Shown piece by piece: positions 6,005 to 55,877 of a DNA stretch of 64,000 nt (positions are counted from its first letter, which is position 1; each line of letters opens with the position of its first letter). Under the pieces are notes generated by a model. The model saw only the letters and a list, made by a program, of their open reading frames with translations, searched no databases and was not told the origin of the DNA. This DNA is from Squalus acanthias. Its lineage: Eukaryota. The position numbers and the translations under genes are program-made. The stretch lies in assembly GCA_030390025.1 (NCBI GenBank), contig CM059432.1, forward strand, positions 92,506,001 to 92,570,000, written 5' to 3'.

Positions 6005-6740
6005 TAAAAAAAATTGTTCTCAGGATGTCTTCTTCTTCTTAGGCAGTCCCTCGGAACTGAGAATGACTTGCTTCCACACTAAAAATGAGTTCTCAAGTGA
6101 CTGATGAGTCCAATGCAGGACCTACAGTCTCTGTCACAGGTGGGGCAGACGGTGGTTGAAGGGGCGGGTGGGTGGGGTGCTTGGGTTGACGTGCGCTCCT
6201 TCCGCTTGGCTTCCGCTTGCTCCCGGCGAAGAGACTCGAGGTGTTCGCCGCCTTCCCGGAGGCTTCTCCTCCACTTTGTGTGGTCTTGGGCCAGGGATTC
6301 CCAGGTGTCGGTGGGGATGTTGTACTTTTTCAAGGAGGCTTTGAGGGTGTCCTTGAAGCGTTTCTTCTGCCCACCTGGGGCTCTCTTGCCGTGTCGGAGC
6401 TCCGAGTGGAGCGCTTGTTTTGGGCGTCTCAGGATGCGGGTGAAGCTGGAAAGGCAGCATTTATTTCCCATCCCTGGCTGCTCTGAGGCATTAAAAGTCA
6501 ACCGCATAGTCTGGGGTCACATGTAGCACAGACTGTATAGAGGTGGGCAGCTTTCATTCCCTGAAGGACATTACTGAACCAGTGGGTTTTTATGACAATC
6601 CGGCAACTTTCAGGTCATTTTTTTGGTGCCAGTCCACAAATTGCCAGATTTTTTTTTAGTTCAATTTCACAACTTGCCCTGGTGGGAATTGAACTCATGA
6701 CCTCTGGGTTACTAGCCCAATATCATAAGCACTAGGCTAC
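6005..6740 (-). mobile_element. Short tRNA-headed SINE (head and tail of the 51749-54830 LINE), tail interrupted by an RTE
   Basis: 6485-6740 matches the LINE head 54540-54830; 6005-6027 plus 6437-6485 match the LINE tail 51749-51825. Confidence 0.75.
6028..6426 (-). mobile_element. RTE-clade LINE, 5'-truncated
   Basis: C-terminal RRPKQALHSEL...GGQKKRFKDTLK...CPTCDRDCRSCIGLISHLRTH; (AAG)n tail; 10-bp TSD tctcaggatg at 6018-6027 and 6427-6436. Confidence 0.9.
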
Positions 6741-19061: not shown

Positions 19062-21305
19062 TTTTTTTTTGCTCTTGGGATGTGGCTGACACTGGCAAGG
19101 CAGTAATTGCTGCCTATCCTTGATTGCCCTGAGAGCATTAAGAGTCAACCACTGGAGTCACATGTAGGCCAGATCAGGTCAGAGTGGCAGGTTCCCCTCC
19201 CCGAAGGACACTAGTGAACCAGTTGGGTTTATACAACACCACAACAACTTGTATTTATATAGCGCCTTTAACAAAGTAAAACATCCCAAGGCAAATTTTG
19301 ACACCGAGCCACATAAGGTGATATTAGGGCAGGTGACCAAAAGCTTGGCCAAAGAGGTAGGTTTTAAGGAGTGTCTTATTGGAGGAAAGAGGTAGAGAGG
19401 CGGAGAGGTTTAGGCAGGGAATTCCAGAGCTTAGGGCCTTGGTAGCTGAAGGCACGGACACCAATGGTGAAGCAATTAAAATCGGGGATGCTCAAGAGGC
19501 CAGAAATAGAGGAGCACAGATATCTTGGGGGTTGTGGGGCTGGAGGAGATTACAGAGATAGGGAGGGGGGCGAGGCCATGGGGGGATTTGAAAACAAGGA
19601 TGAAAATTTTAAAATCAAGGCATTGCTTAACCGGGAGTCAATGTAGGTCAGCGAGCACAGGGGTAATGGGTAAATGGGACGGTGCGAGTTAGGATACGGG
19701 AAGTAGAGTTTTGGATGACCTCAAGTTTACGGAGGGTAGAAGGTGGGAGGCCAGCCAGTGGTGCGTTGGAATAGTCAAGTCTAGAGGTAACAAAGGCATG
19801 AATGAGAGTTTCAGCAGCAGATGAGCTGAGGCAAGGCCTGAAACGGGCAATGTTCCAGAGGTGGAAATAGGCGGTCTTAGTGATGGAGCAGATAAGTGAT
19901 CAGAAGCTCATTTCAGGGTCAAATATGACACAAAGGTTGCGAACAGTCTGGTTCAACCTAAGATAGTTGCCAGGGAGAGGGATAGAGTTTGTGGCAGGGA
20001 CCGAAGACAATGGCCTCGGTCTTCCCAATATTTAGTTGGAGGAAATTTCTGCTCATCCAGTACTGGATGTCAGACAAGCAGTCTGACAATTTAGAGACTG
20101 TGGAGGAGTTGAGAGAGGTGGTGGTGAGGTCTAGCTGGGTGTCGTCAGCGTACATGTGGAAACTGACGCTGCGTTTTCAGATGATGTCGCAGAGGGTCAG
20201 CAAGTAGATGAGAAATAGAGGGGGCCAAGGATAAATCCTTGGGGGACACCAGAAGTAACAGTGTGGAAACAGGAAGAGAAGCCGTTGCAGGTGATTCTCT
20301 GGCTACGATTAGATAGATTAAGAATGGAACCAGGCGAGTGCAGTCCCACCCAGCTGGACGACAGTGGAGAGGCGTTGGAGAAGGATGGAGTGGTCAACAG
20401 TGTCAAAGGCTGCAGACAGGTCAAGAAGGACGAGGAGGGATAGTTTACCTTTGTCACAGTCACATAGGATGTCATTTGTGACTTTGATAAGAGCCGTTTT
20501 GGTACTGTGGCAGGGGCGGAAACCTGATTGGAGGGATTCAATCATGGAGTTCCGGGAAAGATGGGCACAGATTTGGGAGGCGACAATACGTTCAAGGACT
20601 TTGGAGAGGAAAGGGAGGTTCGAGATGGGGCGGTAGTTTGCAATGTTCCCATTATTTTTTTTTGAGTGCATTGGCCCTTCAAGGGGCTGTGTGGCCCATT
20701 CAAAATACCGCATATGCATGGTTTTTCCCATTTAAAAGCCAGTGAGCGGGCATGAGGGGAGATTGGAGAGAAACTGGAGAAAGATGCGGGTTCAGGGCAA
20801 GGGCAGGGGGAACCTTAGAGGAAGTTTGGCCTTGGGGAAGGGAGGGAAGTGGCAGAGGCAGCTAATGAGCTTCTCGCACTTCTTGTTGGAGGTGAGGGTG
20901 AAGGAGACAGGGGAGAGGGGTTTAAGAAGACGGTTTGCAGTAGAGAAAAGAAGCAGAGGTTATCTTTGCATTCCAGAATGATCCTGGAATAGTGAACAAT
21001 TTTGGCAGACGACAGCAGGACTCGATCGTGCTTTATGTGGTCCAGCCAGATCTGGCGGTGAATGACTAAACCAGTTGTCTGCCATATCCGTTCAAGTCTG
21101 CATCCTTTGGACTTAAGGGAGCGGAGATGAGGGCCGTACCAGGGATTATACAGCAATCTTTAATGATTATTTTTCTGGTGCTAGCCCACAAATTACCAGA
21201 TTTATTGAATTCAATTTCACAATTGCCATGGTGGGACTTAAAGTAATGGAGGCTTGAGGATTTGAAGTTGCATCCTTTGGGTTGCTAGTCCAGTACCATA
21301 ATCAC
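19062..21305 (-). mobile_element. Short tRNA-headed SINE split by an L2 insertion (parts 19062-19231 and ~21148-21305)
   Basis: Tail-head junction attgccctgagagcattaagagtcaacc at ~19123-19150; the head resumes after the L2. Confidence 0.7.
19232..21147 (-). mobile_element. L2 LINE, 5'-truncated RT region
   Basis: NYRPISNLPFLSKVLER, QSGFR, LLDLSAAFDTVDH, GVPQG, YADDTQL, LQLNIGKTE; tail ggcgctatataaatacaagttgttg. Confidence 0.9.
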
Positions 21306-24896: not shown

Positions 24897-27800
24897 ATGG
24901 CAGACACGAACGCAGTTTCCGTGGAACTGCCGGAGTTTGGGGAAAACCAGCCCGAAGCCTGGTTTCTCCAAGCTGAATCTCGCTTCCGGCTGCGAAAGAT
25001 CACCACAGATCGGACGCAGTACGACTACCTCGTCACATCACTCGGTAGCACCACAGTTTCCAAGGTTTGGACAGCGCTGCAGAACCCACCAGAGGAAGGC
25101 AAGTACGCACATCTCAAGACAGCGCTCCTTAAAAAATTTACGGCCTCGGCATATCAGCGAAACTGCCACCTCCTCGACCTTCCAGGCCTCGGTGATGCCT
25201 CACCGTCAGACCTCCTCTCCCACATGCTGTCTCTCACCAACGAGAGCCCACCCGGATCCCTCTTCCGCACGCTGTTCATCCGCCAGCTCCCTCTCAGCAT
25301 CCGCCCAGCGATCGTGGCGTCCGGCCTCATGAACCTGGAAGCTCTGGCCGATGAGGCCGACAAGCTGCTGTCCGCTCACTCCAGCTGCGACGTCACTCCG
25401 GACCTGGCAGCCAATGCCTGGGCACGCCCCTCACCGGCCACCACACGGCCACAAGGGCCTGCCACCAGGCCCACGGGGCCTTCACGCCCCACTAACCCGG
25501 GCCACTGTTACTACCACGCACGGTTCGGCGCCAGGGCACAACGGTGCACACCTCCCTGCTCTTTCAAGTCTGCCCCCGTACCAGCCCCCGCGATGGCCGT
25601 GGGCCACGCGGGCTCCCTGCTGTTCGTCACGGATGACAAAACCGGCCGCCGGTTCCTGTGCGACACTGGGGCTCAGCACAGCATCATCCCGGCCTCCTCC
25701 CTCGACATCCAAAAGGGCAAACGAGGACCGGCGCTGGCTGCTGCTAACGGCTCGGAAATCTGGACGTATGGCACCCGGACAGTCACCCTCGACCTCGCTG
25801 GTCACCGCTACCGATGGGAGTTCATCACTGCCAAGGTGCTCTCCCCCCTCATCGGCGCAGATTTCTTGTGCGCCCACGGCCTACTGGTAGACATCCCCCG
25901 TCACCGCCTCGTGGACATGAACACCATGTCCCCCATCTTGGGCGCCATGGCCCCCCGTCAACCCGCCGACATGGCATCACAGTGCCACGGATGACTACTC
26001 GGCACTCCTGGCCGAATTCCCGGCCCTTACCAATCCGACCTTCTCCGCGGAGGCCGCCAAACACGGGGTGGAACACTTCATCCCCACCACAGGCCCCCCA
26101 GTGTACGCCCACGCCCGTAGGCTGGACCCGGCCAAACTGGAGATCGCGCGGACCGAGTTTGCCACCATGGAACAGCTCGGCATCATCCGCCTATCCAACA
26201 GTCCCTGGGCCTCCCCACTCCACATCGCCCCCAAACCAGGCGGAGGTTGGCGCCCCTGCGGGGATTACCGCCGCCTCAATGACGCCACCACCCCTGATCG
26301 GTACCCCGTGCTGCACATTCAGGACTTCTCGGCTAGACTGGCTGGCCGCTCAGTCTTTTCCAAGGTCGACCTGGTGCGCGGCTACCCCCAAGTCCCCGTC
26401 CACCCCGCGGACGTCCCCAAGACGGCCGTAATCACCCCCTTCGGCCTGTTCGAGTTCCTGCGGATGCCCTTCGCCTCAAAAACGCGGCCCAGGCATTCCA
26501 ACGGCTCATGGACTCGGTCCTTCGGGACCTGAAGTTCCTGTTCGTCTACCTGGACGTCATCCTGGTAGCCAGTTCCTCCAAGCAGGAACACCTCGAACAC
26601 CTTCGCATCCTGTTCGGGCGCCTCAGCGACCACGGGCTCATCCTCAGCCCAGCCAAATGCCAGTTCGGCCTGGACAAGATCGACTTCCTCAGCCACCACA
26701 TCACCCATGCTGGGGCCATTCCCCTGCCCACCAAGGTGCAGGCCGTCCAACAATTTCCCCGCCCCACCACCATCAAAGGTCTCCAGGAGTTCCTCGGGAT
26801 GGTGAATTTCTATAACCGCTTCATCCCCAAAGCGGCGTCCCTCATGAGGCCCCTGTATGAAGCCCTCCGGGGCAGGAGCGGCAAGATGGCGGTCGAATGG
26901 ACAGCAGACGCGTCCGTTGCCTTCGATTCCACCAAGACCGCGCTCGCCAACGCCACCCTGCTCGCGCACCCATGGCCCAATGCCAGGGTAGCGCTCATCA
27001 CGGACGCCTCCGACCACGCGGTCGGCGCTGTGTATGAGCAGTGGGTCGACGGCGCCTGGCAACCACTTGCCTTCTTCAGCCGCCAACTACGCCCCCCAGA
27101 GGTCAAGTACAGCACCTTCGACCGCGAGCTCCTCGCGCTGTTCCTGGCGGTCCGCCATTTCCGGTTTTTGTTTGAGGGCCACCCCTTCACTGCGTTTGTC
27201 GACCACAAGCCCCTGACATTCGCAATGGCAAAGACAACCGACCCCTGGTCCACCAGGCAGCAGCGCCAGCTCGCGGCAGTGTCTGAGTTCACCACGGACA
27301 TCCAACACGTCTCCGGCCGAGACAATGTGGTAGCCGACTGCCTCTCCCGCCCCGCCATCCACCTAGCAGTCGACTACGCTCAACTCGCAGCAGACCAGAT
27401 CACCGACCCTGATCTGCTCTCCGCACCCACCAACCTACCAGGGCTACGCCTGGCTGACATCGCCTGTGGCCCGACCGCAGTCACGGTCAAGTGCGACATA
27501 TCCCTATGTCAACCTCGGCCCGTCGTCCCAGCATCCTGGCGCCGCCGGGTATTCGACATTCTCCACAACCTCTCCCACCCCGGCGCCCACGCATCCATCA
27601 AATTGGTAGCCAACCGCTTCGTCTGGCGCGGCCTTCGCAAGGATGTGCGTACTTGGGCCAACTCCTGCCTAGCCTGCCAACGGGCCAAGGTACAGCAACA
27701 CATGAAAGCACCCCTCGAGGAGTTTACCGTCCCCTCGCGGAGATTCGACCACATCAACGTGGACATCGTCGGGCCCCTGCCGCCGTCGCAAGGCCACACA

Positions 27801-28688
27801 CACTTGCTGATCATCGTTGACCGCACCACACGCTGGCCTGAGGCAATTCCACTGACCTCTACCACCACCGCCGACATCGCTAGAGCCTTCGTCAGCACCT
27901 GGGTCGCATGGTTCGGCGTCCCCTCCGACATGACGTCGGACAGAGGTCCGCAATTTACCTCTGAACTCTGGACCGCCGTCGCACGCAATCTCGGGGTGAC
28001 CATTCACCGCACCACAGCATACCACCCCCAAGCCAACGGACTGTGTAAGCGGTTCCACAGATCCTTGAAGGCATTTCTACGAGCCAGCCTGCAAGACGGC
28101 GCCTGGACCGACCGACTTCCGTGGGTCCTCCTCGGCCTGCGCACCGCGGTTAAAGAAGACCTCTACGCATCGGCAGCAGAGCTCGTGTACGGTCAGCCGC
28201 TGCGCATACCCGGCGAATTCCTGCCCACCGCCACGACACCCTGGTCAGCCGACCAGCAACGCCACGACTTCGCCTCACCAGCGCTGCAGTTCGCCCTGGT
28301 GCCCATTGCCCGACACGGCAAATCCACCTCACACGTCCCACTAAGCCTGCACCAGGCACGGTTTGTTTTCGTCCGGCACGACGCCCACCGCGGACCCCTT
28401 CAACCCCCGTACGACGGGCCCTACAAGGTGCTACAGGCTGGGGACAAATTTTTCACCCTGCAAGTGGGCGACAGGACCGAAAAAGTGTCGGTTGACCGAC
28501 TCAAGCCAGCACACTCGGAGCCCGGTGAGCAGGTCCCTGTAGCTCATCCACCTCCACGCGGCCGACCTGCCCTCAAGCCGGTTCACCCGGCTGCTCCACA
28601 CCCGGCCGTTCCACGTCCACCGGCGTCCTACAAGAGCTGCTCCGGCTGGCCCATCAGACCGCCGCACCGTCTCGTCCACACCTCCTAA
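24897..28688 (+). pseudogene. Gypsy gag-pol polyprotein, broken by two frameshifts (~25975 and ~26473)
   Basis: Gag CYYHARFGARAQRCTPPC; protease FLCDTGA; RT SPWASPL, CGDYRRLN, YLDV; RNase H TDASD, DRELLA; integrase HHCC, DIVGP, SDRGPQF and GPY motif. Confidence 0.92.
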
Positions 28689-43639: not shown

Positions 43640-44610
43640 TTAATTTATTCATTCACGGGGCATGGGCGTCACAAAGCCAGCATTTATTGCCCATCCCTAA
43701 TAGCCCTTGAGAAGGTGGTGGTGAGCCGCCTTCTTCAACCGCTGCAGTCCATGTGGTGAAGGTACTCCCACAGTGCTGTTAGGGAATTCCAGGATTTTGA
43801 CCCAGTGATGATGAAGGAACAGCGATATATTTTCAAGTCAGAATGGTGTGTGACTTGGAGGTGGTGGTGTTCCCATGCGCCTGCTGCCCTTGTCCTTCTA
43901 GGTGGTAAAGGTCACGGGTTTGGGAAGTGCTGTCGAAAAAGCCTTGGCGAGTTGCTGCAGGGCATCTTGTAGATGGTAGACACTGCAGCCACGGTGCGCC
44001 AGTGATGGAGTTAGTGAATATTTAAGATGGTGGATGGGATGCCAATCAAGTGGGCTGCTTTGTCCTGATTGGTGTCGAGCTTCTTGAGTGTTGCTGGAGC
44101 TGCACTCATCCAAGCAAGTGGAGAGTAGTCCATCACACTCCTGACTTATGACTTGTAGATGGTGGAGAGGCTCTGGGGAGTCAGGAGGTGAGTCACTCGC
44201 CTCAGAATATCAAGCCTCTGACCTGCTCTTGCAGCCACAGTATTTATGTGGCTGGTCTAGTTAAGTTTCTGGTCAATGGTGACACTGCCCAGGATGTTGA
44301 TGGTGGGGGAATTCGACGATGGCAATGCCACTGAATGTTAATGGGAGGTGGTTAGACTCTCTCTTGTTGGAAATGGTCATTGCCTTGCACAAATGTTACT
44401 TTCCACTTACTAGCCCAAGCCTGAATGTTGTCCAGGTCTTGCTGGATGCGGGCACGGACTGCTTCATTATCTGAGGAGTTACGAATGGAACTGAACTTTG
44501 CGCAATCAGCGAACATCCCCACTTCTGACCTTGTAATAGAGGGAAGGTCATTGATGAAGCAGCTGAAGAGAAGGTTGGGCCGAGTTACTGCCCTAGGAAC
44601 TCCTGCAGCA
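43640..44610 (-). mobile_element. 5'-truncated copy of the tRNA-headed LINE family (RT C-terminus and tail)
   Basis: Colinear with 51749-52550, and includes a segment missing from that copy. Confidence 0.85.
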
Positions 44611-44909
44611 ATATATATTGTTTTAGCTAGTGCTGCAATTTAGATTACACAGTGAACAGCCCTAAATGAAAAAAGGAATGGTTTGTTATTGGTCACTAAA
44701 AATACGATTTGGCTACTTTGATTGACAACCAATAATTCCAATTGGAAGCCAGTGGCCACAGTTTGAAAATGAAGCATTGGGTCACCATCTTGAAGCACTG
44801 GGGGTGGGATGCTGTTGAAAATAAGTACTGATCTTGTAATGTGGACAAAGACAAGCCACTAATGCAGGAGACAGATATTCAGAATTGAAATCTGAGGCCT
44901 TTTCTACCA

Positions 44910-45040: not shown

Positions 45041-46401
45041 CTTTTTCTAGCATATTGCATGACTTTCCTTACACAACTAAGTTACACCTCTTCACACTAT
45101 AAATGTATAAAACAATAGTGGCATGCGTAACAAAATAAGCAGTTTAAGTCCCAGGAATGCCTGTCATTTAAACTTATATCAATCAAGTGAGTTTCATTTA
45201 ATCGGTTTTTAGCCAAATTTAGAGGAAGCAACAAAAAAAAGATTGTTGGCAGTTGGCTTTTTTGAATTTCTCCAGCCAGTTGTGGACGGTCATCATCACC
45301 AACTGAAGAGCAGTTTGCATCCCTGCCCTCTTGCTTAGATGCGGCAGTGGTGCACTGCCTACACAGAGACTAAATATGGGGAGAATATTTTACATTAGTT
45401 TTATTTAAAGAACTGCAACTTTATCACAGTAACTGAAAATAGAAACGATCATTCCAGAACATTATTTAAAGCAAATAACATGATAATCAGTGGGCCCAAC
45501 CCAGCACTTTTTCTGGCACCAGAAGGATATCCCATATATATTAGGATCAACACTCTGAAACATAGATGAAGTTTTGTTTCTTCCCATCGGCAGGATTTAT
45601 AGGGAGAGGCAAATGATAGGTTGCTGAAGGCATAGTAATCTTATCTAACTCCCCATCATTACAGTCAGGCACCAAATCCTTAATCTCCCAAACAACCAGG
45701 GCTCCCTATGTTTAAGTGTTAAACAGTCGAGCACCTCCCAGCCAAACATACACGGGATTAAACTGTCGACTGTGTCTGGCGTTTGATTCAAACTTCAAGT
45801 ACTTTGCTTTTGAACAATTCCTCTGAACTCTAAACCAAACACATCGAGGCCAAGCCCTTATCTTGACTGCACTTCTGCTGTACTTTCTCATAGTACCCGC
45901 TGCATAAAACTAGCCTGCTGTCTGAGCTCTTAGGATGCTTTCAGGCATCAAGCAAAGGGCAATTAGATCTGTTTCCACAACTGAGAGTTAGGATGCACAA
46001 TAAAGGTTTTTCTTTTAAGGGGGCTTAACATCTCTTCCAGACATTCTCTAAACATTTCCAGAGTGTTCAGTGGTACTGCAGTGGAAAGAAACCATAGCAA
46101 GTTATTTAAAACAAATGGATAAAAATATGCTTGGAAGTGAGTTATTTAAAAATCACTCCTAAGCATATTTTTATTCATTTGTTCTATATGTGAGCTTTTA
46201 TTTGTAACCAGTACAGCTGCACTCTTTATTCTATTGCCAATTTCAATACTATTTCAAGAGGTTCAGCAGTATTCCAACCGTTGTCTGTAACACAGCTATG
46301 TTACACCACTTCACAATATAAATTTATAAGAGATGCATAGAAAAAAAATAGGAGCAGGAGTAGGCCATTCGGCCCTTCGAGCCTGCTCTGCCATTCAATA
46401 T

Positions 46402-46585
46402 CATGATGCGGAGATGCCAGGTGTTGGACTGGGGTGGACAAAAATGAGAAGTTGCACAACACCAGGTTATAGTCCAACAGATTTATTTGTACCTTTACCT
46501 GACGAAGGGGCAACAGCTCCGAAAGCTTGTAACTTTAAATAATTCTGTTGGACTATAACCTGGTGTTGTGCGACTTCTCATTTTT
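46402..46585. mobile_element. Penelope-like fold-back mini-element
   Basis: 42-bp inverted arms 46440-46481 / 46544-46585; flanking direct repeat attcaatat at 46393-46401 and 46586-46594. Confidence 0.8.
46495..46532 (+). ncRNA. Minimal type I hammerhead ribozyme motif
   Basis: ttac-CTGACGA-a-ggggc(aaca)gctcc-GAAA-gc-TT-gtaa: stem I ttac/gtaa, stem II, palindromic AAGCTT stem III. Confidence 0.65.
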
Positions 46586-49500
46586 ATTCAATATAATCAT
46601 GGCTGATCCTCTATCTCAATACCATATTCCCGCTCTCACCCCATACCCCTTGATGCCTTTTGTGTCTAGAAATCTATCGATCTCCTTCTTAAATATATTC
46701 AGTGACTTGGCCTCCACAACCTTCTGTGGTAGAGAATTCCACAGGTTCACCACCCTCAGTGAAGAAATTTTTCCTCATCTCAGTCCTAAATGTCCTACCC
46801 CGTATCCTGAGACTGTGACCCCTCGTTCTAGACCCCCCAGCCAGGGGAAACATCCTCCCTGCATCCAGTCTGTTTAGCCCTGTCAGAATTTTATACGTTT
46901 CAATGAGATCTCCTCTCATTCTTCTAAACTCTAGTGAATACAGGCCTAGTCGACCCAATCTCTCCTCATACGACATTCCTGCCTTCCCAGGAATCAGTCT
47001 GGTGAACCTTCGCTGCACTCCCTCTATGGCAAGTATATCTTTTCTTCGGTAAGGAGACCAAAACTGCACACAGTACTCCAGGTGTGGTCTCACCAAGGCC
47101 CTGTATAACTGTAGTAAGACATCCTTGCTCCTGTACTCAAATCCTCTTGCAATGAAGGCCAACATACCATTTGCCTTCCTAACTGCTTGCTATGTTTGCT
47201 TTCAGTGACTGGTGTACAAGGACACCTAGGTCCCTTTGTACATCAACATTTCCCAATCTATCACCATTTAAATAATACTCTGCCTTTCTGTTTTTCCTAC
47301 CGAAGTGGATAGCTTCACATTTATCCACGTTATACTGCATCTGCCATGTATTTGCCCACTCACTCAACTTGTCTAAATCGCCTTGAAGCCTCTTTGCATC
47401 CTCCTCACAACTCACAATCACACCTAGTTTCATGTCGTCAGCAAACTTGGAAATATTACATTTGGTTCCCTCATCCAAATCATTGATAGAAATTGTCAAT
47501 AGCTGGGGCCCAAGCACTGATCCCTGCGGTACCCTACTAGTCACCGCCTGCCACCCCAAAAAAGACTCATTTATTCCTACTCTCTGTTTCCTGTCTGTTA
47601 ACCAATTTTCAATCCATGCCAGTATATTACCCCCAATCCCAAGATGCATAATTATATTTGCACAAGATATGTAAACAAAATTTACCAATATAAAATATAT
47701 TATCCAAAAACCTTGCCCAAACTAACGCAGCACACCTACAATGCTCAAAACGGGTACTGTAACATTTTAAATTTGGAATATGACAAGAGTAATTAAAAAG
47801 ATCTATCACCAACTTCTAATTGCCAGAAAATTCATAAATAAAATTTATTTCATTTCCACAAGAAATTTGCAACCTATATAAGTAACAAGGCAGTTATTCT
47901 TGTATGGGAATAGTTTATAGCTGGTTTAATCAAGATTTTAAGGGAAAAATCTGGAGAAAAATAAAATTCTGACAGCAACAACTAATAGGCAAAGGATATT
48001 CGATTTACTTTAATTGCCACATGCACACATATTGTTTTGCATTTTCCTCCCTTCTATGCCACACTCCTGACTGCCTTAGCGATTCTTTGAATATTTCTTT
48101 TTAAAACATTCGCTGATGTCATTGTAAAGTGAGTCAGAGAGGATATAAAGGAAATGGAAAGTGGAAAACAAACAGAAAAACAGAGGGGCAAACAGAATCA
48201 GAGTGGAAGAAAAGCAAAGACATTTATAGGAAGGGAGCGAGACAGATCAATTTACAAATTCCAATTCCAATAATGTAAATTTTTATAACGAACACTAAAA
48301 CCTGGGCAGGTTAGATTAATAAGCAGAAGTGTGTTATTTAACCAGGTCCTGTAGAGAAGTTCAAGACAAGGTGCAAAGAACCTTCAGCTAGGGAAAAAAA
48401 TTGAACTGGCACAAGTCTTGGAGCTTTATACAATGGAAGAGACCATATATCACTGTTTAACTGCAATGGCATCATGACATTTTAGTGTGTATGCTCAGCA
48501 CATGGCTTCCCCAGAATCTATTATGCGAGGCTGTACAACTAGGGCTTGGGGAAGATTCAGAATGAGAAAAATAATTTAATTTTCAGCCTTGCAGCCACTC
48601 AGAGGGTGGTGACCCTGTGGAATTCTCTACTGCAGAAGGTTGGAATGACAAAGTTTTTAAACTTTTACATATGTTTATATGCTTGCTATAGTTCTGCTTA
48701 GTCATTGTTCCCTTCATTTAATTTCTGATAAATGCCTAGTGCGCACTTTTAATCATCGCAGCTAGGCCTACGACATGGCAATTAGAGTCAAACTAAGATC
48801 ACTGCTGCGCCGTATAACAAATTTTGCACATTTCTTCAATTTAGACTGCCCTCAACTCATGTTGAAGTATCAGTGCTAGTCCATGAGCTCTTGTATTCTG
48901 CTAGTATAACCTCTTGTATTAAAGGAATGGCATTTTTCAGCCAGCAGCAGGGTAGCTGCTTCAAGATTCATGATCAGAGTGAACTTGAACAGAGCTCTCC
49001 AAGTAGAGTTTAGGTAACAACGACTGTAACATCACCTATACAGTGATCAAATATGGTCAGAACAAACTGTTCTTTCCTTTTGTTGTAGTACTCCAAATTA
49101 GGTCTCGCATCTGATTTCTTCATGATGAAGGGTCACAAAGGGGTCATCTTTTGTTGGCTTTATTGTGGGGGCCTACTTCTTGTATCAGTGGAAAGTAGTA
49201 TTAGATTTAAAAATTCAATGCACAAAATCAGTCAGCAGAATACAACAACAAAGAGTTGCATTACTTAACCCGAGGAGAACTGCAGTAGCATTTAAAGCAT
49301 ACGGTCAACGGATAAATACGTTTTGGCTCCATACAGGATTCCAATTCTACTGCATAATTTTAAAACTAGAAAATCATTCCTGCAGATTTTGAATGTTATT
49401 TTTACTTAAGCATTTTACAGCTGACCACCAAAAGGCCAGCGAGGGCCTATATCTAGTGCTTCTCGTGTGGGAGGAGCGTCTGGCTTCCCCCTCAGCATTT

Positions 49501-51075: not shown

Positions 51076-51748
51076 TCGAAACATTTAACAAGGCAAATAT
51101 TACCAGTCGAGCAATACTGATCTTCCTATGAGCTGGTGTTGCCACCAACACTTGGGTTTGCTGGGATGTGAACAGGGATGTAGGTCAAATTGGAGAACAA
51201 ACCATGCGGCACTGCAGTACCACAGTATTTGATTCTTAATGATTCAGATGGTAGTTTACAGTTTTCCCAGAGTATAGGATTACTGGTGCACAATGTCCAG
51301 GTGATAATTTACTTAAATATAAACTACCCTGTACTACTTTTACAAACTTTTCAAAACATCGCTTTATGTGCCTTTAGATACCTAATGAAATTCCATCCAC
51401 CTCTAGAATAAAAAGACAACAAAGCATATTTGTTTTGATTGAAAGATTTCAGCACATGAAACTAAAATACACAAGAGAAAAGGAATGCAATCTAACATGC
51501 CAAACGTGCCTGTTAGACCCTTTCCCCCAGGTTAGGCTCCGCTACAAATCAAGCAGCAAGGGGACAAGCCTTAGCAGAGAGTGAAGAATTCCTAGATAAA
51601 TCAAGTTAATATTTGCTTAATATAGAAGTTGCCCAGTTGCTAAGTTAAATACGTAGCAAGTTTGAATTAAACAGAGCAGCTCCCCTGATGGGTAAATGCA
51701 ACTCATGCTGTGATACGAAGACATACAGCCCAGAATAGCAAGGGAGCT

Positions 51749-54700
51749 TTATTTTTCTTCGTTCATGGGGTGTGGGCGTCGCTGGTAAGGCCAGCATTTA
51801 TTGCCGAACCCTAGTTGCCCTTGACAAGGTGGTGGTGAGCCGCCTTCTTGAACCGCTGCAGTCCGTGTGGTGAAGGTGCTCCCCACAGTGCTGTTAGGGA
51901 GGGAGTTCCAGGATTTTGACCCAGCGACGATGAAGGAACGGCGATATACTTCCAAGTCAAGATGGTGTGTGACTTGGAGGTGATGGTGTTCCCTTACCTG
52001 GATGGTGTTGAGCTTCTTGAGTGTTGTTGCAGCTGCACTCATCCAGGCAAATGGAGAGTATTCCATCATAATCCTGACTTGTGCCTTGTAGATGGTGGAA
52101 AGGCTTTGGGGAGTCAGAAGGTGAGAAGCTCGCCGCAGAATACCCAGCCTCTGACCTGCTCTTGTTGCCACAGTATTTATGTGGCTGGTCCAGTTAAGTT
52201 TCTGGTCAATGGTGACCCCCAGGATATTGATGGTGAGGGATTCAGTGATGGTAATGCTGTTGAATGTCAAGGGGCGGTGGTTGGACCCTCGCTTGTTGGA
52301 GATAGTCATTGCCTGGCACTTAAGTGGCAGGTAACATTCGCGCCACACATCAGCCCAAGCCTGAATGTCGTCCAGGTCTTGCTGCATGCAGGCATGGACT
52401 GCTTCATTATCTGAGGAGTTGCGAATGGCACTGAACACTGTGCAGTCATCAGCGAAGATCCACACTTCTGACCTTATGATGGAGGGAAGGTCATTGGTGA
52501 AGCAGCTGAAGATGGTTGGGCCTAGGACACTGCCCTGAGGAACTCCTGCAGCGATGTCCTGGGGTTGTAATGATTGACCTCCAACCACCATAACCATCTT
52601 CCTTTATACTATGTATGACTCCAGCCAGTGGCGAGTTTCCCCCCCGATTCCCATTGACTTCAGTTTTACTAGGGCTCCTTGATGCCACACTCGGTCAAAT
52701 GCTGCCTTGATGTCAAGGGCAGTCACTCTCACCTCACCTCTGGAATTCAGCTCCTTTGTTCACGTTTGGACCAAGGCTGTAATGAGGTCGGGAGCCGAGT
52801 GGTCTTGGCGGAACCCAAACTGGGCATTAGTGAGCAGGTTATTGGTAAGGGCCGCTTGATAGCACTGTCGATGACACCTTCCATCACTTTGCTGATGATT
52901 GAGAGTCGACTGATGGGGATTGGATTTGTCCTGCTTTTTGTGGAGAGGACATACCTGGGCAGTTTTCCACATTGTCGGATAGATGCCAGTGTTGTAGCTG
53001 TGCTGGAACAGCTTGGCTAGAGGCGCGGCTGGTTCTGGAGCACAAGTCTTCAGCACGATAGCCGGGATGTTGTCGGGGCCCATAGCCTTTGCTGTATCCA
53101 GTGCGCTCAGCCGTTTCTTGATATCACGTGGACTGAATTCAATTCGCTGAAGACTGGCTTCTGTGATGGTGGGGACCTCAGGAGGAGGCCAATATGGATC
53201 ATCCACTCGGCACTTCTGGCTGAAGATGGTTGCAAACGCTTCAGCCTTGTCTTTTGCACTCATGTGCTGGGCTCCACCATCATTGAGGATGGGGATATTC
53301 ATGGAGCCTCCTCCTCCCGTTAGTTGTTTAATGGTCCACCACCATTCACGACTGGATGTGGCAGGACTGCAGAGCTTTGATCTGATCCGTTGATTGTGCG
53401 ATCGCTTAGCCTTGTCTATAGCATGCTGCTTCCGCTTTTTAGCACGCATGTAGTCCTGTGTTGCAGCTTCCCCAGGTTGGCAACGCATATTTAGGTACGC
53501 CTGGTGCTGCTCCTGGCATGCTCTTCTACACTCCTTATTGAACCAGGGTTGGTCCCCTGGCTTGATGGTAATGGTAGAGTGAGGGATATGCCGGGCCATG
53601 AGGTTACGGATTGTGGTGGAATACAATTCTGCTGCTGCAGCTGATGGCGCACAGCGCCTCATGGATGCCCAGTTTTGAGCTGCTAGATCTGTTCTGAATC
53701 TATTCCATTTAGCACGGTGGTAGTGCCACACAACACGATGGAGGGTGTCCTCAGTGTGAAGACGGGACTTCGTCTCCAGAATGTCTGTGCGGTGGTCACT
53801 GTCATGGACAGATGCATCTGCGACAGGTAGATTGGTGAGGACGAGGTCAAGTAGGTTTTCCCTCGTGTTGGTTCTCTCACCACCTGTCGCAGGCCCAGTC
53901 TGGCAGCTATGTCCTTCAGGACTTGGCCAGCTTAGTCAGAAGTGGTGCTACCGAGCCACTCTTGGTGATGGACATTGAGGTCCCCCACCCAGAGTACATT
54001 CTGTGCCCTTGCAACTCTCAGTGCTTCTTCCAAGTGGTGTTCAACATGGAGGAGTACTGATTCATCAGCTGAGGGAGGGCGGTATGAGGTAATCAGTAGG
54101 AGGTTTCCTTGCCCATGCTTGACCTGAAGCCATGAGACTTCATGGGGTCCAGAGTCAATGTTGAGGACCCAGGGCCACTCCTTCCCGACTGTATACCACT
54201 GTGCCGTCACCCCTGGTGGGTCTTTCCTGCCGGTGGGACAGGACATACCCAGGGATGATGATGGAGGGGTCTGGGACATTGGCTGAAAGGTATGATTCTG
54301 TGAGTATGACTATGTCAGGCTGTTGCTTGACTAGTCTGTGGGACAGCTCTCCCAATTTTGGCACAAGTCCCCAGATGTTGGTGAGGAGGACTTTGCAGGG
54401 TCGACTGGGCTGGGTGTGCCGTTGTCGTGTCCATAGCCGGTGCCGAGGTCAATGCCGGGTGGTCCATCCGTTTTTTTTCTTATTATTGTGTTTCGTAGCA
54501 GTTTGTTACAACTGAGTGGCTTGCTAGGCCATTTCAGAGGGCAGTTAAGAGTCAACCACATTGCTGTGGGTCTGGAGTCACATGTAGGCCAGATCAGGTA
54601 AGGACGGCAGATTTCCTTCCCTGAAGGACATTAGTGAACCAGATGGGGTTTTATGACAATCCGATAGTTTCATGGTCACCATTACTGATACTAGCTTTTT

Positions 54701-54830
54701 ATTCCAGATTTATTTAATTAACTGAATTGAAATTCCCCAGCTGTCGTGGTGGGATTTGAACTCATGCCTCCGGATCATTAGTCCAGGCCTCTGGATTACT
54801 AGCCCAGTAACATAACCGCTAGCTTTACCA
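51749..54830 (-). mobile_element. Apparently full-length LINE (CR1/L2 supergroup) with a tRNA-derived 5' head and a single APE-RT ORF
   Basis: Head 54540-54830 with B-box GAGTTCAAATCC; EN motifs NIWGL, TES, YRPP, GDLN; RT motifs GPDNIP, QFGFR, GVPQGSVLGP, FADD; tail caataaatgctggcc...aaaaataaa; several frameshifts. Confidence 0.88.
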
Positions 54831-55877
54831 TCTGAGATATTGGCGAGGGAGGAGGAGAAATGGAGGGAAAAACACACCTAGGGTTTTCACTTGTGATTGC
54901 TATACAGTGACCCTGGCTGGAATAATGCCTGTGTGGATGTTGAGCAAGGACAGAATTAAGGACATTAAGGGATGGGAATAAACAGCAAGAAAAGTGAAAC
55001 AAAAGTTGAAGGCTTGGGCTTTTGAATTAATTTAGTCTTAGAAATATTGCTAAGTCCCTTCCAGCACAGAGCAAACATAAGAGTTTGGTACAAAAGGGAG
55101 AAAACAAGGTCAGTGCAAAGCAACCTCCTAATAAAATCAATAGTCTTACAAAATGACACGTAGTAAAACAGTAAACTCCAGAATATAAAGCAAACATATG
55201 AAAAACACATGAACCAAAAGGTTAGTAAAATGAACAGCTTCCCAGATGTAACTTACTATATCTGAGAGTTTCGGATGACTAGAATGCTGGTACAATGTGC
55301 TGATTTTCTTCAAGCAGAAACATTTTGTGGGCTGAATACTCCAAGGTTTTAAAACAAAATATGTTCCAGGTGATTCTCAAATTTGTTGCAACTTCAACCT
55401 TTAGTATACGGGATATCAGGCCACTAAATATTCCTCATATTTCACAAAGATGTTGCCACACATTTAAATAATTGGAATTTGGGTTTTTGAAAATTCAGTT
55501 GGAAAATTTTCAAAATATAAATCTTCTAAAGCTGCATCGCATGAATGTTTAACAAACTTCGAAAATGCTCAAAGTTTAAACATAACAATCTATACCACAC
55601 AATAATAGACTTACACAACTGCCTCAGCAGTACTGAACCAAGACACAAGGGAATACAGCATAGAATTTGATCCATCTCTATCTATTAACATTACCAACTT
55701 CTTTACCCAATTCATACTTGAACAGAATATGTCCTCTCACGGCACACACCATAATTCAATCATGAATTCAAACCATTTATGGGATTTAAATGATAGTTTT
55801 GAATCTTATTGATATGCATTAAAAAAAAAATAAGCAGAAAAAAGCAAGTCCAAAACAATTAATTTTTTTTACACAAT

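Follow-up and report, generated by a model that had tools for sequence, protein, structure and literature searches.

Can RNA polymerase III (Pol III) transcribe a protein-coding LINE from a tRNA-like head belonging to that LINE? The question is raised by a near-full-length element on the minus strand of the window, as we call the whole 64-kb stretch of Squalus acanthias DNA analysed here. A preliminary description of this stretch had proposed such an element, with terminators purged from its coding sequence.

The copy in the window and its family

Pfam matched pieces of an endonuclease (Exo_endo_phos) and of RVT_1 in the window copy, while ARAGORN and Rfam detected no tRNA in it; because of its frameshifts, stops and a ~210-nt deletion, the copy is dead and cannot be active (table 1). 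The B box and the anticodon-like hairpin first described are both there, the hairpin as one of two anticodon arms in tandem instead of a single one, and the A box of the tRNA-like head proves degraded in this copy and clean in others. The head had been placed ~150 nt upstream of the endonuclease start. In fact the B box lies ~370 nt upstream of the NIWG motif (54368-54379), a distance that still leaves no space for an ORF1. The unit had also been thought to sit inside an older SINE: the right flank does have an old-repeat match in 11/11 other loci, but the left flank scores above shuffles at just 2/11, so the claim is confirmed only in part. The host-SINE argument is in any case unnecessary, because copies elsewhere already show the head.

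Table 1. Features of the LINE copy and its flank, in window coordinates.
Feature	Position	Strand	Remarks
LINE copy, near-full-length, decayed, tRNA-headed, single-ORF	51749..54835	(-)	~4% substituted vs 3312-nt family consensus
A-box position	54816..54827	(-)	degraded here; most other full-length copies have it in canonical form
Anticodon arm 1, AGT, Thr-like	54791..54807	(-)	
Anticodon arm 2, AAT, 21-nt tandem duplicate of arm 1, at the variable-arm position	54770..54786	(-)	
B box, canonical	54752..54763	(-)	no variant at 12% or more in ~52 aligned copies
Remaining 5' UTR, SINE-body-like, retained in head+tail deletion forms	54506..54751	(-)	
Putative start at a non-AUG codon, ACG, the fourth in the stop-to-stop frame	54494..54496	(-)	
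APE-type endonuclease domain, limits approximate	53700..54400	(-)	frameshifts ~54167, ~53855
Reverse transcriptase domain, limits approximate	52200..53100	(-)	FADD 52445-52456; lesions ~52916, ~52844; stops
3' tail: predicted stem-loop, AATAAA near 51794-51804, short A tail	51749..51825	(-)	
Flanking old SINE-like repeat, host sequence outside the element	54859..54965	(+)	

The family consensus, 3312 nt long, was built from 29 copies, and many copies in the genome lie ~4-7% from it. The family makes up 4.2% of an abundance sample of 56 evenly spaced 10-kb pieces (560 kb) of the 3.7-Gb genome, with 25 3' ends and 7 heads; its copy number is roughly 1.7 x 10^5 if the sample is typical. Dispersed 5'-truncated copies share a fixed 3' tail, coverage in the sample climbs toward the 3' end, and A tails are present in most of 85 3' ends. 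No consistent target-site duplications were found in 10 copies with both ends. The window itself holds an older second copy, 5'-truncated and ~9% substituted, at 43644-44612 (-).

That the head travelled with the LINE, as had been suggested, is borne out by the other copies. Of twenty-nine that were selected by their heads only, 25 read on into the ORF and in 4 the tail follows the head directly; in the even 560-kb sample the head is found on 3/3 copies having the ORF start. The 5' ends of full-length copies consistently fall on the same handful of bases, those of tRNA +1, and their flanks are unrelated. An alternative 5' end was also looked for; none was found, nor is one common to 21 truncated copies. 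The head is thereby confirmed as the integral 5' end of the family. An apparent common upstream sequence of loci L014, L028 and L016 was rejected, being a duplicated locus and other repeats. At L016:3245-3644 an abundant younger SINE with a CR1-type tail, which we take to be V-SINE-like, is inserted in a copy of the LINE.

ARAGORN calls a tRNA in 6/25 heads (2 Thr-AGT, 4 Ile-AAT), and the Rfam tRNA model aligns full-length to the head with 26.6 bits, just below the cut-off of 29. The alignment contains a 21-24-nt insert, which is the anticodon-arm duplicate, and shows several mismatches in the acceptor stem; the D, anticodon and T arms are predicted to be still able to pair. Judged by sequence, the head derives from a tRNA and is tRNA-Thr-like. 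Common variants spare the fixed box positions, an observation of little power. The UTR body was also considered as a Meta domain (66-nt, MetaSINE) and rejected, since by eye it has no resemblance to the consensus in the supplement of PMC7245038; nor, by eye only, does it resemble the part of the Deu alignment taken from the same supplement.

The head+tail forms are ~420 nt long and have several different junctions, two of them common to more than one copy, and are therefore what repeated internal deletion should produce. A small number of head+tail forms diverge further (15-20%), which makes an older SINE a possible donor of the head. Two SINE-like pieces of the window, at 19062-19238 (-) and 6487-6602 (-), are 15-20% diverged and contain the UTR body of the LINE, joined in the former to the LINE's tail at a different junction; they could belong to an older SINE related to the head donor.

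Mis-annotated proteins from Heptranchias, Heterodontus and Pristiophorus contain fragments 69-88% identical to the element, and its sequence occurs in 22 public runs from 8 organisms and 7 studies; because of these matches we regard it as a widespread shark family. In the proteins P0001, P0004, P0005, P0007 and P0099, annotated exons of unrelated shark genes are pieces of its ORF, probably through gene-model errors. No relatives were found among viral contigs.

The reading frame, its start and its relatives

The consensus ORF (29 copies) is one 973-codon frame from nt 330 that holds the APE endonuclease and the reverse transcriptase (RT) together, behind a 5' UTR of 329 nt with 8 upstream ATGs and 2 AATAAA. 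Where shared means present in at least 5 copies and 10%, the shared non-CpG variants comprise 47 synonymous, 34 non-synonymous and 0 stop changes, against 806, 2248 and 123 among rare ones, which gives a relative non-synonymous/synonymous ratio of ~0.26. For the endonuclease alone the synonymous:non-synonymous counts are 9:5 among shared and 214:580 among rare variants. Purifying selection on both endonuclease and RT is thus supported, as are an ORF functional in the source elements and the autonomous family that had been postulated.

The first in-frame AUG is codon 287, past the endonuclease, whereas 76/78 control ORFs have an earlier Met. In-frame codon 4 is ACG in 18/36 copies and a CpG decay product of ACG in 15/36, and appears to be the best candidate start. 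The frame is kept downstream of it in 32/36 copies, a weak sign, since slippage at AAT can produce the 12/15-nt classes. The Phe content of the ORF is low (1.8%). Three single-ORF LINE relatives (P0021, P0023 and P0024) likewise have the lowest Phe (1.6-1.8%) of 98 related proteins, a sharing that weighs against the Pol III account given below.

The element is an ORF1-less, APE-type LINE of the CR1 group, autonomous when active. The clade into which it falls in RT trees (support 0.997) has 101 members, mostly unnamed and including elements of sponges and crustaceans, and the element lies apart from the CR1-like and L2-like families of this genome; its nearest sister differed between two trees. 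The label CR1-Zenon would probably fit it. Over 107 aa it is 45% identical to a fragment of a butterfly protein. The bivalve-derived loci L244-L277 were rejected as close Zenon-like relatives, since they fall outside the clade in the larger tree and serve as distant controls only. The one full-length relative within the clade that has DNA, L163, shows a 1-kb T-rich leader, 20 TTTT runs and a frame whose AUG comes 20 codons in, with no tRNA head and no ORF1 (no upstream ORF of at least 150 aa). Because L163 also lacks ORF1 and most related proteins lie on 3-5 kb contigs, the lack of ORF1 probably goes back to an ancestor of this lineage. The preliminary description had taken that absence as a sign; the absence is real, but being probably inherited it is uninformative about the polymerase.

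A tRNA head at the 5' end was found at 0/127 foreign loci, six relaxed-threshold matches being internal or antisense, and Rfam matched no self-cleaving ribozyme at the 5' end of L163 or of the RTE-like control described below. In the RT region of the window copy, at 52312-52445 (-), Rfam gives a weak match to RMST conserved region 8 (E 1, 21 bits, cut-off 80); that lncRNA region may be the relic of a related LINE, or the match may be due to chance.

T clusters on the sense strand

The plus strand is without AAAA over 3387 nt (51481-54868), the longest such gap in the window, and there is therefore no TTTT on the sense strand of the window copy, just as first described (0 vs 4.2 expected from the shuffled copy, P 0.011). 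The next longest gap, 1998 nt, lies in a C-rich stretch (25001-28500, C ~0.39) with few A4/T4 runs. The neighbouring repeats at 46335-47645 and 19232-21147, which had been said to contain such runs, do contain them: whichever strand is counted, there are 4 T4 runs or more.

The sense strand of the element is T-poor (0.19), which makes a count of TTTT only a weak test: the ORF has 0 against 1.8-3.1 expected (P 0.04-0.14 under three nulls), and the whole element 0 against 4.0 (P 0.016). Nor is its absence diagnostic, because two control consensuses show it over part of their length. The RTE-like control (T 0.175, no tRNA head), a single-ORF, partial consensus from L122:2100-5500 (-) with a fragment at 6028-6430 of the window, contains a single TTTT, at the 3' end, and none internally in 3.2 kb. 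One CR1-like control, covered there by 2-5 copies, has 0 TTTT in its first 1.8 kb (4.1 expected, 557-codon frame, P 0.003), with TVTTT signals present.

TTTT and TVTTT are the shortest working Pol III terminators according to excerpts of PMC8466645. Counting both, a motif set chosen after the T-cluster depletion had been seen, the element has 0 vs 7.0 expected (P 0.0005), and 0 vs 3.5 with protein and codon usage held (P 0.012). The observed/expected values in the control consensuses, which are partial, rest at their 5' ends on 1-5 copies and were labelled by recognition and tree, are 7/4.7 (RTE-like), 9/11.3, 16/8.5 and 10/8.0 (CR1-like) and 14/13.0 (L2-like). The element also has only 7 T3 runs where 19.8 are expected and 1 window with four T in five where 9.7 are expected, deficits that none of the five control consensuses shows. 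Its observed/expected ratios of 0.44 for T3 and 0.22 for four-in-five windows compare with minima of 0.75 and 0.78 among 78 foreign LINE ORFs, although these are T-richer (0.22-0.37) and mostly outside its clade, only 2 being within it. (The 78 are those of 126 loci, L163-L288, that passed a 550-aa, no-N filter; L289 was dropped because its longest ORF is not an RT.) The depletion is strand-specific, with 21 TTTT/TVTTT signals on the antisense strand, and T-specific, pyrimidine tracts having no deficit.

These results support a depletion of terminator-like T clusters beyond composition and beyond the LINEs of the same genome. To that extent the terminator purge first proposed holds up, although the absence of TTTT on which it had been based does not suffice by itself. 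Shared to-T changes creating TTTT number 0/31 against 0.6 expected, which has no power to show avoidance. Tails of the form T(n)A(m), which Pol III termination together with polyadenylation might leave behind, were considered too and rejected as evidence: 16/72 parsed tails (of 86) have at least 3 T, equal to the background (120/466).

How the element may be transcribed and translated

Pol III transcription with a non-canonical start offers the simplest account, because an A/B-box head at +1, strand-specific loss of terminators over 3.3 kb and the lack of an AUG occur together. On balance we favour, with modest confidence, an ORF1-less CR1-group LINE with a tRNA-Thr-derived head that would be transcribed by Pol III, translated from the uncapped RNA without AUG, and reverse transcribed; here we infer the polymerase, the cap state, the start codon and translation in cis. 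The LINE would have gained a SINE-type head as its 5' end, whose internal A and B boxes would drive transcription. Selection on source copies would have stripped TTTT/TVTTT from the sense strand, so that Pol III could read 3.3 kb and stop where it first meets a run of T in the flanking DNA. This one uncapped RNA would serve both for translation without AUG, probably beginning at the ACG a little upstream of the endonuclease, and as the template for target-primed reverse transcription, which would use its 3' stem-loop and A tail and put the copy into the genome, internal deletions repeatedly yielding the head+tail SINEs. Against Pol III stand published views, as excerpted here, that it is not processive enough for such elements to be longer than ~1.3 kb (Kojima 2024, PMC10886601) and that SINEs cannot encode a protein (Kojima 2018, PMC5786205). 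Translation of an uncapped RNA is an unexplained difficulty.

In an alternative scenario, the captured SINE head acts as a Pol II promoter or 5' boundary, or host Pol II reads through, and U clusters are avoided for some other reason, for example RNA stability or innate-immune sensing. LINEs are as a rule Pol II transcripts (excerpts of PMC10886601), the RTE-like control is T-poor on its sense strand without any head, and the tail carries an AATAAA ~45 nt ahead of the A tail. However, LINEs of the same genome, under the same cellular pressures, show no T-cluster depletion, the boxes are canonical with full-length copies beginning at tRNA +1, and the 8 upstream ATGs together with the lack of an early in-frame AUG fit cap-dependent scanning poorly. 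We consider this scenario rather unlikely, though a serious contender.

Labour might instead be split, with Pol III making the 3.3-kb template and the protein supplied in trans by capped transcripts that Pol II makes on reading through a few source loci. This would account for head and terminator purge without translation of uncapped RNA, and the deletion forms, two with one junction in common, show that mobilisation in trans is possible. But the ORF is kept whole in 25/29 heads and shared variants are mostly synonymous, which suggests that the copied RNA supplies the protein; a non-AUG start would still be required, and we find such a division improbable. Cleavage by RNase P of a Pol II read-through RNA at tRNA +1 could give the exact 5' end at which copies begin, and the three arms can pair, but the mismatched acceptor stem and a terminator depletion over 3 kb that it leaves unexplained make it very improbable.

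Returning to the Pol III account, its precedents are partial. For the whale shark, a class of CR1-Zenon-like elements has been annotated (bioRxiv 10.1101/443036, in part). As described in excerpts of PMC6740152, CR1-Zenon has, like our element, one ORF with APE endonuclease and RT and an A tail, and its internally deleted head+tail derivatives, Persaeus, recall ours; in contrast to the tRNA-headed element, the same excerpts describe the 5' ends of Persaeus/Zenon as lacking both homology to tRNA and a Pol III promoter. RTE-1_DAn and relatives are mentioned in part of Kojima 2018 (PMC5786205) as autonomous LINEs containing tRNA-like sequence. They belong to the RTE clade and not the CR1 group; they are the nearest precedent found, and may reduce the novelty of the element. 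SINE2 elements, including Bov-tA and SINE2-1_ACar, share with it a 5' tRNA-derived head with A and B boxes, a LINE-type tail and no internal terminators (same excerpts). They are short and non-coding, with the head added to a deleted LINE, whereas here the head sits on the autonomous LINE itself, which at 3.3 kb with a selected ORF is short and non-coding only in its 420-nt deletion forms; these arise by one deletion, unlike bipartite SINEs. Among LTR elements, a Pol III promoter from a small RNA is shown for Cassandra and proposed for Helenus and Ajax (TRIMp3; parts of PMC10886601), but these are non-autonomous, 0.3-1.3 kb long and without protein, and not protein-coding LINEs. In the RT tree our element and the L2-like consensus of this genome do not fall together. 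ORF1-less L2 LINEs of the ZfL2-2/UnaL2 type have a single ORF and a stem-loop tail in common with a SINE; we know of no tRNA head in them.

A literature search, with Repbase and Dfam outside its scope, returned no description of the element or of a Pol III-driven autonomous LINE. The available portions of PMC5753468, PMC3747384, PMC11481361, PMC10294476, PMC3894237, PMC4824008 and PMC5499810 do not describe it, and its sequence motifs have no match in paper full texts or in the available supplements of PMC4824008, PMC7245038 and PMC6740152. It may well be catalogued somewhere already.

LINEs are conventionally set apart from SINEs as Pol II-transcribed and protein-coding, as opposed to Pol III-transcribed and without protein. 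A family of ~10^5 copies here unites a Pol III-type head with a selected ORF, terminators having been removed over 3.3 kb. A bolder reading, tentative and less likely than not, is that the 3.3-kb Pol III transcript might be the autonomous retrotransposon's own mRNA, uncapped, terminator-free and with a non-AUG start, the tRNA-like head with its doubled anticodon arm serving as ribosome-entry element. If so, this would be a LINE and a SINE in one, among the most successful repeats of shark genomes. The family makes it possible to test whether Pol III can produce a long natural mRNA in a vertebrate and how uncapped, AUG-less RNA is translated, and its internal deletions show that a LINE can become a SINE in a single step. 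Should Pol II turn out to be the polymerase, the architecture is still unusual among CR1-group elements: it is real and integral, and on the evidence of sequence the case for Pol III appears well motivated.
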